From: Candidatus Bathyarchaeota archaeon
GTDB lineage: Archaea > Thermoproteota > Bathyarchaeia > Bathyarchaeales > Bathycorpusculaceae
Direction of reading: 5' to 3'
NCBI GenBank assembly: GCA_963720565.1
Contig: CAVRFW010000009.1
Span: 96,001 to 160,000, forward strand
Length of the DNA: 64,000 nucleotides
The position numbers and the translations under genes are program-made. The notes beneath the pieces were generated by a model. That model did not search any database, was not told the origin of the DNA, and saw nothing but the letters and a program-made list of their open reading frames with translations. This document shows, piece after piece, positions 45,304 through 54,617 of this stretch (positions within the stretch are counted from its first letter, which is position 1; the number at the start of each line of letters is the position of its first letter).

Positions 45304-46546
45304 ATGTTTAGGCAACTTATGACTTATGAAGAGGCAAAGAAGGCTATTCATGTTCATCTTAAGCCTGAAGCATTAGGTGGAGAGGAGCTTTCTCTGCTGG
45401 AATCACTCTCTCGCGTCTTAATGGAGAACATAACTTCCTCTCTTGATATTCCACCTTTCAACAGATCTACCGTTGACGGTTACGCGGTAGTAGCGGAGGA
45501 TACCTTCGGCGCAGAAGAAAACAAGCCTATAACCTTGAAGGTCTTAGGCGTTGTTAATGTGGGCGAGCTTCCTGAGACTAACCGTTGCAAAGAATGGAAC
45601 CGCGGAAATAGTTACTGGTGCTCCCATCCCCGAAGGCGCAGACGCAGTTGTTATGGTTGAGAACACTGAAAAAGCGGCTGATGAACTTCGCGTTTACACC
45701 GCTGTCGCAAAGAACGAAAATGTGATGAAGAAAGGTGCAGACATAAAAAAAGGCGAAATCATTCTCAAAGCGGGTCAGATTCTGGGTTCCTCGGAGATAG
45801 GGGTTCTAGCCGCTTTGGGATTAACAAAAGTAAAAGTTTTTCGTACACCCGTGGTGGCGGTTCTCTCCACTGGAGGAGAAGTAACTGAACCAGGCATGAA
45901 GTTGCCTCCTGGAAAGATTTATGACATTAACGCGTCCAGCCTCAGCGCTGCGGTCTTGGAGAGCGGGGGGCGACCGGTTTACATGGGTGTGGTTCCAGAT
46001 GATAAAAATGCGTTACGCAAAGCTTTAGAGCATGCTCTTGCTTCTGCGGACATTGTGTTGACTTCTGGAGGGGTTTCAGTAGGGCCGAAAGACATTACGC
46101 CGGAGACTGTCGCTTCTCTGGGTGAACCAGGGTTGATTGTTTGTGGAGTAGCTCTTAAACCTGGCAAACCCTTTACAGCGGCTTTTGCGGGTCGAAAACC
46201 TGTTTTCTCGATGCCTGGGCATCCCACTTCAGCTTTGCTGCTGTTTCATTTGTTTGTACGTCCGGTCATTCAGCTCTTGTCTGGTAGACCTGTACAGGAA
46301 AAAGCGCTTGTTAAAGCTGTGGCGGGTGCCAGAATGTTTTCAGCTAAGGGAAGGCGCACGTTTGTCATGGTTAAGCTGAAACGCGAAGGACCGGATAGAA
46401 TTGTTGCTTTGCCTGTTGAGACCGGAGCTTCGGGTGCAATAACGACTCTCGCGAAAGCTGACGGGTTCGTTGAGATTCCTGAAAACCAGCAGTTCATTGA
46501 TGCTGGAGAAGAAATTTCTGTAGCCCTTCTCAGGACTATTGTCTAG
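45304..46546 (+). CDS. moeA: Second MoeA (frameshift near 45580)
   Basis: ORFs 45304-45660 (STVDGYAV) and 45551-46546 (TGAPIP, STGGE, SGGVSVG, KPGKP) join. Confidence 0.88.
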
Positions 46547-48010: not shown

Positions 48011-50894
48011 CTATTCTATGAATATTGCTGGCTGATAAGGCGTAGCCATCGAAGCTCGCTGCTTAGGATCGTAGCGTTGCGCGTCGTTTTCGTTGTAAAC
48101 CGAGATTTCCGCCTTGAACCGGTCTTTTAGGAAGGGGATGGCTTCTTGGATAATTTCTTTCTCGTTGAGTTCCCTTATCTTTTGGATGTTCCCTTTTCTA
48201 TCGTTGGAGAGCTTCGCTAGTGATTTGATAACGCGTGGGACGAGTCCTGCAATCTCCTTCATGTGCGGCTTCAAATCGGGGTCAGCGGCTAACTCCTTCA
48301 TTATCTCGTTGATTTTCGGGTCTCCGGAAGTCGCTTTCTCTATGACTTTTAGGTATGCTTTCCACTTCCAGGGGGCAGCGGTGTAGAAGCATAGTCTTTT
48401 AGGCGTGATTTTTGTGGCTTTCAAGATGTTGAGTGTGTCGGCGATCATGTCTGTTATGATGTTCTCCTCTTCCTCTGCCTTGACGTCGATTTTGCCCTGT
48501 TCTACTCTGGGCCACTCGGCAAGGGCGATGAATCCCTTCTTTCCTGTTTTGCTCCAGAGCTCTTCGCATACGAACGGTGCGAAAGGAGCCATTAGTCTGA
48601 GCCATATTTCTAGGGCTTCGCGAACTGCTTTGGCTTCTGTTTTTCCTTTTCTTTGAGCGTACCAGCGGAAATCGTTCCAAGTTTCAAACAGTGCATTCTC
48701 TAAGGCTGTACGTGTTTTAAGCTCCTCAAGCGCCGCTGAGACTTGTCCTAATTCGTTGTTGTATTCTGCTGAGCAGCCATTTTTCCATATGCGTGGTTTC
48801 GTCGCTGCTTGCCGTCTCGATTATGTTAATGGCAAAGTTTTGCAGGGCTTCGAATTTGTTTTGGATTTCAGCGGCGTTCTCGCCTCTCCAGTCTGGGTCG
48901 TCCATGCCTTCAGCGCCTAACAACAGGGCGCATCGAGTGGCGTCTGCGCCGTAGCGGTCAACCGCTCCTTTCATTGTTACGAAGTTGCCCTTGGACTTGT
49001 GCATCTGTTTGCCCTCGATCATGAGCATCCCGTTTACACCTACGGCTCGGGGCCAAAGTTCGCGTGGAAACAATGCCGCGTGGTGGAAGATGCAGAAACT
49101 CAGATGGTTAGGCACCAGCTCTTTCGCTGAGACTCTAAGGTCGAAGGGATACCAGTACAGGAATTCTTCTCGCATTTCCTTCAACAGTTCCGTTGATATT
49201 CCAGATTCTTTGCTGACTTGGGCGGTTTCGCCTTTGCCGAAGAAAAGGTAGTCGAAGACTTCGCGCTTTAGCGCCTCAGGTTTTATGTTGTGTTGTCGTA
49301 TGTGTTTGTTTATTGTGTAGAAGGACATGTAGATTGTTGAGTCGCTGAGGGTTTCTATGATCCAGCCTTTTCCCCATGGCAGTGGTGTTCCGAAACCCGT
49401 GGTTCTGGCGCAAGCCCATTCTTTGAGCCAGTCGATTACTGTTATGAACCATTGCCTTGCTGATTCGGGGTAGATGTTCATTTGTGCAACTAGTTCTTTG
49501 GCTTTTTCTTTCCATGCGGAATCGGAGTAGTTCAGGAACCACTGGTCTGAGAGTATTTTAACAATGCATGGTGTCATGCAGCGGCATACCACAGATTCAG
49601 GTAGATCGTACATGCTGTCGGCTGCGCCTATCTTCTTGAAATCCTGTATGAGTATATCTTTGACTTCCCTGACTGTTTTTCCAGCGTACGGTCCACAGTT
49701 TTGCTTCAAGATTCCTCCGTGGAACTCTTTCTTGTAGAGCGTTTTGGTTGCTTCGTCCGCTCTTGGGTCATGTTGGTCTTTGACTCCCATCTGTTCAACC
49801 AGTTCCACTGCGGGGTACTCGCCGAAGCCCTCGACTTGTATGAGCGCAATAGGTTTTATCTGCTTAACAAATTCCGGGTCAATACCGAATTCTTGGAGCA
49901 CTTCAGGTTTTTCCTGCAGGTCTTTTAGTGCGAGCCAATCGTAGGGGGCGTGGGCAGGAACACTGTACACGACGCCAGTAGCCTGGTTCGCGTCGACAAA
50001 CCAGCCTGGCAATATCGGAAACTTGGCTTTTGTGATTGGGTTCTGGAAGCTTTTTCCGATTAGTTCTTTGCCTTTGAACTTGCGTTTCACTTCAACGGTT
50101 CTTTCTTGTTCCTTGAGTTTCTCCGCAGCTTCTTGGCTGACTATCCAGTTTTCCCCATTTACCTTCGCCTCTACATACGTGGCGTCGGGGTTTATCCACA
50201 TGTTTGTTATGCCATAGATAGTTTCAGGTCTAAACGTTGCCGCAGGCAGGAAAGTTCCATCGTCAAGCTTGTACTTTATTAGCGTGTACTCTTCGGGCGT
50301 GACGCCTTCGCCCACTTGGCGGTCATGGTCGCCGGTTGGGCTTTGATCTTTGGGGCACCAGACAACGGGGTGTGTTCCCCTCGTGACGTAACCCAATTCT
50401 CTAAGGCACTTGTATTGCCATTCGATGAATTTCTGGTAGGTTGGCATTATTGTGTTGAATTCTCTTCGCCAGTCAATCGAGAAACCGATACGCCTGGCAA
50501 TTGAGTGTCCTTCGTTAGTGTAATACTGCGCCATGTAAAGCGGGTCAACAAACTTTTTCAGCTCCTCCTCTGGTACGCCATCCATTTCCCGCAATACTCG
50601 AATGTATTCTGCGTCGCCCTTTGCGACGCGTTGGCTTGCCCCCAAAAGTGGTTGTCCAGTCCAGTGCCAAGACCAAGGCCACAGTACGTTGAAGCCTTGC
50701 ATGCGTTTGAAGCGTGCGTAAACGTCTACACGCGACGCTGTGAACGTGTGACCGACGTGCAGCGGACCATTCATGTAAGGATAGGGAAAAGTTACCATGA
50801 TTTTTTTGCGGTTGACGTCTGGGTCTGCTTCAAAAATGTGGGCTTGTTCCCAGCGTTTTAGCCATTTGCTCTCGTTTTCCTTGGTCTGACTCAT
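48011..50894 (-). CDS. leuS: Leucine-tRNA ligase (single frameshift near 48748)
   Basis: PY.NGPLHVGH, editing domain (ATFRPET, GVVYSVPAHAPYD) and QMHKSKGN. The frame continues as QVSAALEELKTRTAL..FRWY into ORF 48011-48592. Confidence 0.93.
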
Positions 50895-51012
50895 GAAACT
50901 TGTTGAATTAAGTCTATGGCTATTAAGAGTTGTGTTTAAGGCCAACTGCAATTGGAAACGGACCTAAAAAGGTAAATAGCGCTCGCATCAATGAAATATG
51001 TTTGATGCTCAA

Positions 51013-52007
51013 ATGTCCGATAAGAAGAGCCTCGTGAAACAGACAGTTGCTCTCCTTAGAAAGCGTGGTAAGAAATCTCTGGAAATCGCCCGACGTTCTA
51101 TTGAGCAAGATGAAATTAAGCACCAGCCCCTCGGAGATGCTCTTAGATATTTTGCTGACGAAATGTTCGCTCATATTGGGCACCCTGGCTTGCTCTCAGT
51201 TTACTGCGAAGCAGTAGGTGGCGATCCGGACAAGACAATTCAGATTGGCGCGGCAATGGTTATGCTGGTTTCTGCAGCAGATATTCATGACGATTTAATT
51301 GACGAGTCAACGGTGAAGAATGGCAAGCGAACTCTCTTGGGCAAGTACGGTAAGGACTTAGCGATTCTGGCAGGCGATGCGTTCCTAATGAAAGGCATGT
51401 ATCTCCTTGACGACGCAATGTCGAAATTCTCTATGGACAAGAGAAATGCGGTTCTTAAGTTGATAAAGCAGGCTTTTTTCGACCTCAGTAGTGCTGAAGC
51501 AGAAGAAGCTGCCCTCAGAGGTAACATTGACCTATCGGGACGCGTGTTTTTTGAGCTAATTAAGGGAAAGAGCGCGGTTTCAGAAACAACTGGCAGAATA
51601 GGGGCAGTTCTTGCAGACGGGACAGAAGAAGACTTGCAGACTCTTGGCGAGATAGGTTACATCGTAGGTTTGCTCAGCACGATTAGAGACGAGTTTATAG
51701 ACGTTTTCGAACCCGACGAACTCAAAAACAGGTTTAATAGGGAAATTTTGCCACTTCCTTTGCTTTACGTTTTTCAGGACTCAGCAGAAGAAAAATCGAA
51801 TCTTGGAGTTGTTACGAGAAGACAAAATAACAAAGAAGAATACTGAGCAAATTGTCAGAATTGTAATGGAAGCCAAAGAAACAAAGGACATTGAAGGATG
51901 AGATGCGTTTGCTAATTGAGAGGGGTTTAACTTCCTTGGCAACACTCAGAGGTGAAAAAGAGCCTCTACGACTGCTACTAGAATCCGCAGCGGAAGACCT
52001 ATATTAA
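51013..52007 (+). CDS. Atypical polyprenyl-synthetase-fold prenyltransferase (ComQ-like); two frameshifts near 51785 and 51890
   Basis: First Asp-rich motif HDDLID and AILAGD are present. The second motif is degenerate (RDEFID), and GKRxRP and RRG are absent. The C-terminus continues as ..NRILELLRE..LKDEMRLLIERG..AAEDLY* to 52007. Confidence 0.75.
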
Positions 52008-52016
52008 TAAGCAACG

Positions 52017-52037
52017 CTCGAAGTAAAAAAATTCGAG
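52017..52037 (-). terminator. Oligo-T terminator of the micro-gene, within a short inverted repeat
   Basis: A7 at 52025-52031 (T7 on minus) begins 12 nt after the peptide stop and is flanked by CTCGAA/TTCGAG. Confidence 0.5.
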
Positions 52038-52043
52038 GGTATT

Positions 52044-52088
52044 TTACTTCCAGAATTTAACTCTAACCGGAACTTTGGCTTTTTGCAT
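52044..52088 (-). CDS. Unannotated 14-aa peptide MQKAKVPVRVKFWK (candidate prenylated-peptide precursor)
   Basis: ATG CAA AAA GCC AAA GTT CCG GTT AGA GTT AAA TTC TGG AAG TAA. GAGGGG lies 8 nt upstream, with a TATA box further up and a T7 run downstream. Confidence 0.6.
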   Translation of the reverse strand: MQKAKVPVRVKFWK

Positions 52089-52092
52089 GAAT

Positions 52093-52144
52093 CCTTCCCC
52101 TCTTGTGTATATCTGTTGTACAGTATAGAGCTTAAAAGGTTTGC
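52093..52144 (-). promoter_or_regulatory. BRE/TATA box and SD-like tract of the micro-gene
   Basis: Minus strand GCAAAC-CTTTTAAG (52144-52131) and GAGGGGAAGG (52102-52093). Confidence 0.55.
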
Positions 52145-52233
52145 GTTTGCCTCATGGACTCTGAATCCAATTCTTCAATTCTGAACCTTTATTTTGTGTT
52201 CAAAAACTAGGTATTCAATCGGTAAAAGTCTCA

Positions 52234-53467
52234 ATGCTAAGACGACTACTGTCAGGACTCACTCTAAGAGCTGCGTTTCTGAGTGTAATGATAGTGTCCA
52301 ATGCGTTCGTTTGGTATTACCTTGTAGACGACATTATTGTAGGACTGTCAGCAACACTATCCAATGACTATATTACCCAGTTGCAGATATGGGCAACGTA
52401 TTTTGCCGCGCTCATCGGAGCAGCTTTTGTTGGAGCGCACCTGTCAAGTAGGTTTGAGAGCAAGAAACGATTTCTTTCTATTTGGATGCTTTTGGGAGTC
52501 GTTTTACCTTTTGTTTCCCTTTTGGTCAATCCACAGAACGTTTGGGAGTTAATTCTGCTGGGAATCGGTTTCAGCGTTTCCTTAGGTTTTGGATTGCCCT
52601 GCTGCATGGAGTATTTCACGAGTTATAACTCGGTGGAAACACGCGGGAGAATAAGTGGTTTTGTTTTTCTCTTCACGGGTTTGTGTGTCGTAATGTTGAC
52701 AAGTATTCCAGACGGCGACCTTCTTACACAGACCCTGATTGCTTCAATATGGAGGACTATAGGGTTGCTATCCTTCGGTCTCGTAAAGTCCAGCAAAATC
52801 TAGGGTCTCTGAAGGCAAAGCGACCTCTTATAATTCGATACTCAGGGATCGATCTGTCCTTCTGTACTTAGTTCCCTGGATAATGTTCTCCCTAGTAAAT
52901 TACCTCGCTGCACCAGTATTAGACAGGGTGTTCAGTGACGCGTCGATGGCGGATACTTTAGATACTCTGTCTTTAGTCGAGAACGGCTTAGCAGGAGGCT
53001 TTGCAGTCGTTGGAGGGTTCTTGGCGGATGCAGTCGGACGCAAACGCATGGCAATTACTGGGTTTGTTGCGCTTGGTCTTGGTTATGCAATTTTGGGTAT
53101 ATCACCTTTAGATCTTAATGCGTGGATTTTCCACACTATTGCCGACGGTTTAGCTTGGGGAATGCTGTTAGTGTTGTTTGTTACAACACTGTGGGGTGAT
53201 TTAAGCCACAATACACCAAGCGAAAAGTATTATGCAGTGGGCGTTTTCCCCTTTTTCTTGTCAAGATTTCTTCCTTGGGTAATTAAGGATCAACTCGTTA
53301 ATGCAATTCCTGATTCCGCAATCTTTTCTTTCACAGCCTTCTTCTTGTTCATAGCAGTTCTGCCATTGGTTTATGCGCCTGAGACTCTGCCTGAAAAAGT
53401 CATGAAGAAAAGAGAGCTCACGCTTTATGTCGCGAAAGCTCAGGAAATCGCGGAAAAATACTATTAA
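52234..53467 (+). CDS. MFS transporter (frameshift near 52787)
   Basis: ORFs 52234-52803 and 52883-53467 join via ..RDRSVLLYLVPWI. Motif A GFLADAVGRK, RGRISG and C-terminal APETLP. Confidence 0.8.
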
Positions 53468-53492
53468 ACTCGTATCTCGTTTACGATAATCC

Positions 53493-54617
53493 ATGTTCTT
53501 CCACGTAATCCTAACGACTGAATGTAACTTGCAGTGCCGTTACTGCTTTGGTGAGACGCTTGAAGATTTCGATGAGGATTTCGCCGAAATGGATGTGGAT
53601 TATTCCCTTCCAAAAAAGGTTGCTTACGATTTCAAATTGCTTGCTAGGTTTTGCGGGCGAGATTCCGAATGTGTCTTGACTTTCTATGGAGGAGAACCCC
53701 TCCTCTGTGTTGATGAGATAAAGCAGATTATGGATTTGGCGAAGCCGCGTCACTTCATGATCCAAACAAACGGGCTTTTCCTGGATCGTTTGCCTGCTGA
53801 GTATGTTAACCGTTTTCATACGATTCTTGTTTCTATCGACGGGGAAGAGGCTTTGACCGATTCTTGCCGGGGGAAAGGCACTTTCAGGAAGGTCGTTGAT
53901 AACTTGAAGTTGATTATGCGGAACGGTTTCAGCGGAGAGTTGATTGCGAGGATGACGGTTATGGAACCAACGGACATTTACAAGCAAGTGACGTGGCTGC
54001 TAAGCAACGATGAGTTTTCGTTTTCTTCTGTTCACTGGCAGTTGAATGCTGGTTTCTGGGGAAACGATTATTCAAGGCGAGACTTCAAACGGTGGAGCGA
54101 GTCGTCCTATATTCCAGGTGTCGAAAGGTTGGTGCATTTCTGGGTTGACCAAATGGAAACGCATGGAAAAGTGGCTAAACTTTATCCCTTACTGGGAATT
54201 GCCAACTCACTCCTGCGAGGCGAGAAGGAGAGTTTGCTCCGGTGCGGGGGCGGATGGATAAACTACGCGGTGCAAACCGACGGTTACATTATTCCGTGCC
54301 CTACAATGTGGGGAATGAAAGACTACTACGTTGGACACCTAAGCAATGCGAACCCGCTTACCCTCAAGAAGTTCTTCGTCGGTGTGCCATGCAGTGAATG
54401 TGAAATTCTGAATGTATGCGGAGGCCGTTGCCTCTACGCGAACATAACCAATCGCTGGAACAGAGAAGAATACGCCACAGTATGCAACACTGTGAAAGGG
54501 CTGATAAACGCCGTGAATATGGAGCTGCCGCGCATAAAACGACTGATAGGGGAGAAAAAAGTGGGCTTGAAGGACTTTGAATTCGTGAAGTACAACGGGT
54601 GCGAGATAATCCCTTAA
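53493..54617 (+). CDS. Radical SAM/SPASM enzyme, AF0577 (TIGR04084)-like putative peptide modifier
   Basis: CNLQCRYC, FYGGEPL, QTNG and SIDG. SPASM Cys CGGG..DG.I.PCP..CSEC..CGGRC, with C-terminal NGCEIIP. Confidence 0.85.
   Translation: MFFHVILTTECNLQCRYCFGETLEDFDEDFAEMDVDYSLPKKVAYDFKLLARFCGRDSECVLTFYGGEPLLCVDEIKQIMDLAKPRHFMIQTNGLFLDRLPAEYVNRFHTILVSIDGEEALTDSCRGKGTFRKVVDNLKLIMRNGFSGELIARMTVMEPTDIYKQVTWLLSNDEFSFSSVHWQLNAGFWGNDYSRRDFKRWSESSYIPGVERLVHFWVDQMETHGKVAKLYPLLGIANSLLRGEKESLLRCGGGWINYAVQTDGYIIPCPTMWGMKDYYVGHLSNANPLTLKKFFVGVPCSECEILNVCGGRCLYANITNRWNREEYATVCNTVKGLINAVNMELPRIKRLIGEKKVGLKDFEFVKYNGCEIIP

Follow-up and report, generated by a model that had tools for sequence, protein, structure and literature searches.

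A conserved 14-codon gene convergent to an isoprenoid-synthase-like enzyme in Bathyarchaeia: a candidate prenylated-peptide system

A 14-codon peptide gene, a convergent gene for an isoprenoid-synthase-like enzyme and a divergent gene for an MFS transporter travel together, and the promoters of the peptide gene and of padR genes share one operator. The set lies in a 64,000-nucleotide stretch of a Candidatus Bathyarchaeota contig, hereafter the window. By analogy with known systems, we consider it rather probable that the peptide is prenylated on a Trp residue by the convergent enzyme and that the lipopeptide is then exported. The original prediction, a self-contained small gene with its own control elements, overlooked the near-constant linkage to the enzyme and to the divergent MFS gene.

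The small gene and its conservation

The features of the locus, in order of window coordinates, are as follows.

50998..52007, plus strand: trans-isoprenyl-diphosphate-synthase-like enzyme (PF00348), a predicted peptide prenyltransferase; DDxxD kept, IPP site lost
52025..52031, minus strand: run of seven T, a possible terminator, 12 nt 3' of the stop codon; weakly conserved
52044..52088, minus strand: precursor peptide gene for MQKAKVPVRVKFWK; 14 codons plus TAA, marked by conservation and third-position bias
52097..52102, minus strand: Shine-Dalgarno-like GAGGGG, 8 nt 5' of the ATG at 52088
52107..52129: operator, a palindrome of 23 bp that follows the TATA box and precedes the predicted start site; consensus GTATATnTGT-N3-ACAnATATAC
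52131..52144, minus strand: archaeal BRE/TATA-like element GCAAAC-CTTTTAAG; spacing conserved in 80 loci
52234..53467, plus strand: MFS transporter, a predicted exporter, transcribed away from the peptide gene; this assembly splits it near 52801

All elements of the original prediction sit where it placed them: GCAAAC-CTTTTAAG at 52144-52131, the palindrome, GAGGGG at 52102-52097, the ATG at 52088, the stop ending at 52044 and the T7 run at 52031-52025. The product, MQKAKVPVRVKFWK, has four Lys, one Arg and no Asp or Glu, for a net charge of +5, and consists of a basic leader, a P-V-R motif and a Trp in the penultimate position at the C-terminus. Its gene lies tail-to-tail with the PF00348 enzyme gene on the other strand, with 36 nt between the enzyme end and the peptide stop (the median stop-to-stop gap across loci is 15 nt), and is divergent from the MFS gene starting at 52234. 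The view of it as a self-contained small gene with TATA box and Shine-Dalgarno sequence is upheld by its relatives: 68 of 80 have a Shine-Dalgarno-like motif, and the 80 promoters share an A-rich and then a T-rich block at fixed spacing 5' of the palindrome box. The terminator fares less well. The T7 run is present 12 nt past the stop, but a run of seven or more occurs at only 5 of 80 peptide loci (genome background, 0.5%), and a run of five or more within 40 nt past the stop at 20 of 80 (background, 7.4%). Rfam models gave no matches over 50500-53500, nor did a scan for sigma-70 promoters and hairpin terminators, whose models do not cover archaeal promoters.

A loose P-x-R..W pattern fits ten short ORFs in the source genome (G000), so the sight of a 14-codon ORF in a single genome is unremarkable; it is conservation across loci that marks this one as more than chance. 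We gathered enzyme loci from 41 related genomes plus the best 80 of 208 matches in a genome collection and removed six duplicate and two truncated loci, leaving 96 distinct loci, mostly from Bathyarchaeia. A fixed rule, drawn up after peptides had already been seen and hence not blind, called for a convergent ORF of 10-24 residues that has a net charge of +3 or more, contains [PVILAMFT]-R and closes with a short hydrophobic tail. Of the 96 loci, 80 satisfy it. On the other strand of these regions it fires in 4 of 96, in random windows in 137 of 1529 and in shuffles in 133 of 1920. Demanding the promoter box as well brings the figures to 79 of 96, 5 of 1529 random windows and 7 of 1920 shuffles. 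Ten of the 16 misses hold a peptide by inspection, five with ACG starts and the rest just outside the thresholds. Counting these ten with the 80 that pass the rule, 90 of the 96 loci have a similar peptide 3' of the enzyme; in the other six, neither rule nor inspection found one.

Among the 80 rule-passing peptides, Pro stands at position -2 from the Arg in 68 and Ile or Val at -1 in 59. Trp occurs in the tail of 64, as last or second-last residue in 60, and is absent from 16. Residues R+1 to R+3 vary, so the alternating amphipathic strand seen in the window peptide by the original prediction is not kept in the family; its conserved features are P-[IV]-R and the near-terminal Trp. Conservation in related genomes had been proposed as a check, and the gene passes it: in the contigs of close relatives the frame is kept, GTG replaces ATG, three codons (that of the Arg among them) differ silently and two differ in the amino acid. 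Mismatches by codon position number 59/52/106 in 27 related pairs, which are not independent of one another. Given this conservation of sequence, the 14-codon ORF is a real, conserved small coding gene, and we infer that it is translated.

The pattern extends to other classes, from which 14 loci were fetched later. A convergent peptide is found in ten, and these are all ten loci of one family, f46, whose peptides are of the type MKxY[NST]PT[PM][VI]RxW (for example, MKNYNPTPVRLWVPG) and weakly basic. Of the remaining four, one has an upstream co-directional peptide, two have no peptide and one is cut by a contig end. The peptide gene is upstream and co-directional at L142, L143 and L165, the last with PIY in place of PIR and its Trp kept. 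No peptide was seen at several more distant enzyme loci, nor was such a partner at the control loci of canonical GGPP synthases (L026-L030, L138 and L139).

Several side observations concern the gene and its distribution. One clade (L035, L041, L052, L053, L054 and L056) appears to use ACG as a conserved non-canonical peptide start, with a strong GGAGG-type ribosome-binding site ahead of it. Four f46 loci (L158, L159, L164 and L169) carry two identical tandem copies of the peptide gene, each with its own ribosome-binding site. The peptide-less loci L106, L107 and L108 are highly similar over about 200 nt 3' of the enzyme, possibly the end of a mobile element or a structured RNA. Named records of close homologs are mostly Candidatus Bathyarchaeia. 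The enzyme also occurs in four records binned to other phyla (L063, L081, L090 and L102); three of these have the peptide and branch inside Bathyarchaeia, so mis-binning is likely.

The convergent enzyme and its long-partner relatives

The enzyme gene of the window has two frameshifts near its 3' end in this assembly. A model of an intact ortholog, L002, adopts an all-helical isoprenoid-synthase (trans-IDS) fold with a pLDDT of 93.8. The best structural match is the Pyrococcus GGPP synthase 1wy0 (TM 0.83), with the indole prenyltransferase Ord1 among the top matches. By sequence, too, an archaeal GGPP synthase (E 5e-40) outranks Ord1 (E 4e-27) as the best solved match; Ord1 is 24-26% identical to the family in structural alignments. 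A reading of the enzyme and MFS genes as pseudogenes was rejected: the extra bases at 51785 and 52801-52802 do not occur in the contigs of relatives, which are not of the same strain, and the MFS gene is not split there. Since genes for leucyl-tRNA synthetase (leuS) and MoeA in the window are split as well, assembly indels are more likely; the frameshift-split genes at 45304-46546 (moeA-like), 48011-50951 (leucyl-tRNA synthetase), 50998-52007 and 52234-53467 suggest an indel-prone assembly.

We aligned 128 proteins, comprising 119 family members and nine GGPP-synthase controls, with two short and two unmatched rows excluded. In this fold, motifs of the GGKR, RRG, GQxxD, KT and FQxxDD type bind IPP and diphosphate. 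The nine controls retain all five. In the family, GGKR, RRG, GQxxD and FQxxDD are replaced, the second aspartate motif (SARM, whose role in IDS-fold enzymes is described in PMC13290415) reading mostly R-[DE]-E-F-x-D. The Lys of KT is retained in 89 of 94 short-peptide enzymes and is doubtful in the long-partner clades, where the alignment is uncertain. The first motif (FARM, DDxxD) is intact as D92/D93/D96 in all 94 short-peptide enzymes, that of the window included. With the first DDxxD kept and the IPP-site residues lost, the enzyme seems equipped to bind an allylic donor and unequipped to extend it. The motifs have to carry this argument: scores against NCBIfam models of canonical synthases fall far under every cut-off, but so do those of the control L028.

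Retention of the Mg/donor motif with loss of the IPP site is the state described for ComQ, PalQ and StheQ (PMC10853753, PMC13290415, bioRxiv 10.64898/2026.08.29.745113), and it is this ComQ/PalQ logic on which the prenylation reading is built. In published accounts of ComQ, PalQ, StheQ and Ord1 (bioRxiv 10.64898/2026.08.29.745113, PMC12510300, PMC13290415), a Gln that precedes the second aspartate motif has a key part in recognizing Trp. That Gln, one turn before the SARM, is present in nine of nine GGPP-synthase controls and in none of the 119 family members; the enzyme is therefore not classed as a member of the ComQ family, only as one that may work like it. Its pocket gains conserved acidic residues, E161, E164 and E190. 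The missing Gln, the 16 of 80 peptides without Trp and the 6 of 96 loci without a peptide all speak against Trp prenylation. In the enzyme tree, 17 Trp-less peptides fall in one subtree: a well-supported clade of 12 with tails such as YIIP, VML and AGP and no common acceptor, one nearby row, and four Tyr-tailed peptides among Trp-bearing relatives.

Members of the enzyme family occur in 36 of the 48 genomes sampled from the window's own family, in 64 of 301 of its class and in 12 of 17 genomes of a family in another class. Seven loci show two enzyme matches each (L004, at G030 C13:75578-77633, and L035, L056, L073, L080, L086 and L090), and in G030 they are shown to be tandem copies. The extra copy might take part in a heterodimer; alternatively, some of the pairs could be split genes.

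Two sister enzyme clades are paired with longer partners of 55-99 residues, which are helical proteins and not notably basic. Trp is among the last five residues in 14 of 15, the ends reading KWPxxx, DIIW, VSW, NPIW, SIRW, GGWA or RAPW, with one KYP. A profile of these partners matched 8 of 301 genomes of the class, and all but one weak match were convergent to such an enzyme; no partner was seen at the sister-clade locus L113. The source genome itself has two further paralogous loci of the same layout, with convergent partners of 73-76 residues. These Trp-ending partners (L118 and L119, at G000 C11:45186-45416 and C4:1122-1343) lie beside enzymes frameshifted in this assembly, and the 23-bp operator has no match in either cassette. 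An identity with NHLP or Nif11 leaders was rejected, since five long partners matched none of the Pfam and NCBIfam models and the window peptide is too short to contain such a leader. For these partners the ESM Atlas offered YuzC, at 0.80, as a lead only.

The sister clade offers a view of how enzyme and partner might meet. A complex model of the L111 enzyme with its own 73-residue partner scored 0.73, against 0.20 for the best of three controls; of 157 solved complexes 116 attain this mark, as do 2 of 215 mismatched pairs, rates that are a rough guide for our own alignments. At least 65% of contacts recur between runs, and partner pLDDT is 77 or higher. Leader helices dock on the loops after both aspartate motifs and on the C-terminal helices, and none of the confident contacts involves the Trp. 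The model supports partner binding in the sister clade, not catalysis, and may reflect likeness to solved structures. In the stretch 225-236, mean net acidity is 5.4 and 6.1 in the short-peptide enzymes, 1.4 in the modeled clade and 3.9 in GGPP synthases; such an acidic stretch would explain the basic leader, with the caution that the contrast follows clades and is not independent evidence.

Operator, regulators and the possible uses of the peptide

The original prediction had proposed that an imperfect palindrome between TATA box and Shine-Dalgarno sequence might be an operator. It proves to be the core of a conserved 23-bp element common to padR promoters. The palindrome is the consensus across 80 peptide promoters, with a second box upstream in 28; its core columns served as the alignment anchor, so only the flanks and the matches outside are independent. 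A matrix was trained on 79 peptide promoters and used with a threshold score of 14. The window's site, with core TGTACAACA at 52122-52114, scores 15.4 when left out of training. A divergent padR pair is linked to 37 of 79 loci, and the intergenic regions of such pairs score above 14 in 33 of 41 cases, against a single match in 345,182 other positions. The source genome has no linked pair; of its four best sites, three are found immediately 5' of its three close padR homologs, and the window's own site ranks eighth. Genome-wide it has 14 matches above 14, against 5-7 in shuffles. Because that excess is modest, we posit no regulon members other than the padR and peptide promoters. Four sites scoring 18-25 away from these promoters (G000 C12:70549, C13:23654, C9:476181 and C8:29810) may be regulon members or chance.

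By eye, a second palindrome, ATATGTC-N8-GACATAT, of the TGT-N10-ACA type, adjoins the 23-bp operator in padR promoters, for example at L005, L040, L094 and G000 C10:52545-52570; either pairing of regulator and site would be possible there. Two padR copies of the source genome, in near-duplicate loci, stand beside chaperone genes (C7:1123-3655 and C10:53042-55500) that we take to be ClpB-like. Since palindromic TGT-Nx-ACA sites are of the PadR/MarR operator type (PMC7145548), PadR control of the peptide promoter is likely. The likeness extends to the TGT..ACA core, to a site length of 20-25 bp and to a place at the promoter of the regulator itself; the spacers published there are N4, N8 and N10, against N3 here.

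The MFS gene is present in 75 of 79 loci. A cluster with a PAS histidine kinase is found in only 8 of 79, at varying positions; the lack of a constantly linked histidine-kinase receptor counts against the prenylation and signaling reading. A radical SAM gene (TIGR04084, 53493-54617) was considered as a second maturase and set aside: it follows the MFS gene in 50 of 79 loci, yet is unlinked in f46, and it occurs in 82 of 201 genomes of the phylum against 26 of 201 for the enzyme. Being commoner than the enzyme, and unlinked in f46, it is treated as a mere neighbor.

Under the prenylation reading, the K/R-rich leader would dock on the acidic stretch after the degenerate second aspartate motif, and the enzyme would transfer a prenyl chain onto the near-terminal Trp. 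P-[IV]-R might be a recognition or cleavage mark, with possible trimming there. The adjacent MFS protein would export the lipopeptide, a PadR-family regulator would bind the operator, and a secreted signal could feed back through PadR. Such a secreted signal with PadR feedback is the most likely use of the peptide, plausible though short of probable; a membrane-active lipopeptide is another possible use of the same chemistry.

Four other readings have to be weighed. The one that survives best, unlikely as we judge it, makes the enzyme-like protein a receptor or sensor that binds a prenyl diphosphate and the unmodified, re-imported peptide and relays to PadR; Rap-Phr is the model for a peptide exported and then re-imported. 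The absence of the catalytic Gln (119 of 119), the persistence of enzyme, promoter and MFS gene in the Trp-less clade, an L111 model that supports binding only (0.73 against 0.20) and the doubtful KT-motif Lys of the long-partner clades would all suit such a role. It is harder to reconcile with invariant metal-binding aspartates, with the Lys that 89 of 94 short-peptide enzymes retain, with the persistence of a terminal Trp, the known acceptor of the fold, in three clades with unlike leaders, and with the lack of a fused output domain or enzyme-regulator fusion among six long matches scanned.

Somewhat less likely again is prenylation on an atom other than Trp C3, be it Arg, Tyr, indole N1 or the amine freed after a cut at P-[IV]-R. 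Arg is present in all rule-passing short peptides (the rule required it) and survives a synonymous change in relatives, Trp-less peptides exist, the Gln-free pocket gains E161, E164 and E190, and unrelated cyanobactin enzymes prenylate Arg, Tyr or the terminus (PMC10853753); however, the characterized trans-IDS-like prenyltransferases covered in PMC13290415 all modify Trp. Long partners ending in DIIW, VSW, NPIW and GGWA have no nearby Arg, and L165 has lost the Arg to PIY yet keeps its Trp.

The original prediction had also offered an unmodified cationic toxin or antimicrobial peptide, to which the MFS protein would be exporter or immunity factor, and we now find this very improbable. Type I toxins and cationic antimicrobial peptides are marked by a conserved hydrophobic or amphipathic membrane segment or an antisense antitoxin RNA, and these features were absent when the family was tested for them. 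The window peptide is indeed cationic, with its +5 charge and aromatic end, and MFS adjacency (75 of 79) would fit; but charge is not general, the f46 peptides being weakly basic and the long partners helical proteins with no notable basicity, the amphipathic pattern is not conserved, Rfam gave no antitoxin match, and the near-constant enzyme linkage would be left unexplained. Least credible is a cis role, in which an antisense or attenuating transcript acts against the enzyme 3' end and the peptide is incidental or its ORF chance: the stop codons are close (median gap 15 nt) and the T-run is absent at many loci, but the codon-position bias, an amino-acid motif conserved across classes, tandem gene duplicates and the upstream co-directional genes at L142, L143 and L165 weigh heavily against it.

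Comparison with known peptide prenylation systems

Among the nearest parallels to the proposed chemistry is StheQ/StheX of Sphaerobacter thermophilus (bioRxiv 10.64898/2026.08.29.745113), which shares the all-helical IPPS fold, an intact FARM and a degenerate SARM, and a small ORF beside the enzyme whose product is prenylated on a second-last Trp, the position it has in the window peptide. StheX is longer, at 69 residues, and in StheQ the pseudo-SARM is NDxxx and Q212 is present; the SARM here is R-[DE]-E-F-x-D without the Gln, and the precursor is mostly of 10-24 residues, convergently encoded and from an archaeal host. PalQ of Paenibacillus alvei, likewise an IDS-superfamily enzyme and first annotated as a terpene synthase, acts on PalX, which has a basic and aromatic core ending in Trp (DNVRRFFW) and a leader that aids binding (PMC10853753). 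PalX differs in its NHLP leader and in having a histidine kinase linked to it; no NHLP/Nif11 match was obtained here, an MFS gene and a PadR pair stand where the kinase would be, and the Gln is missing. In ComQ/ComX of the Bacillus ComQXPA system, too, a ribosomal peptide with near-terminal Trp is encoded beside an IDS-like enzyme (PMC10853753, PMC13290415), whereas here no ComP/ComA pair is linked, the layout is convergent and the peptide has a separate promoter. Ord1 (PMC12510300; PDB 9V4G-J) is all-helical and derived from the synthase fold as well, but acts on free indole and depends on Q216, the Gln that is absent here.

IDS-fold peptide prenyltransferases are described from bacteria in PMC10853753, PMC13290415 and bioRxiv 10.64898/2026.08.29.745113. 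A literature search at the level of listings, covering few subscription papers, found no archaeal ComQ-like peptide system. By analogy, the system described here would be an archaeal counterpart of the bacterial lipid-tagged signaling peptide. The species-variable tails of its peptides recall ComX pherotypes, and should it prove to act as a lipidated signal, cells of abundant sediment archaea would be communicating through peptides with such variable tails. On this reading its enzyme genes are mis-annotated as lipid-synthesis enzymes and its partner ORFs are too short for gene callers. Both the Trp-less clade and the lack of the Gln suggest that catalysis is solved in another way. Put most fully, and only as a tentative picture that we think less probable than not, this may be an archaeal peptide-pheromone system in which a Gln-free prenyltransferase arose independently from an archaeal GGPP synthase to act on one of the shortest RiPP precursors, the product would be exported by an MFS protein, and a cytoplasmic PadR pair would serve as reader in place of the membrane kinase; the Trp-less clade would then prenylate another residue, a new chemistry for the IDS fold.
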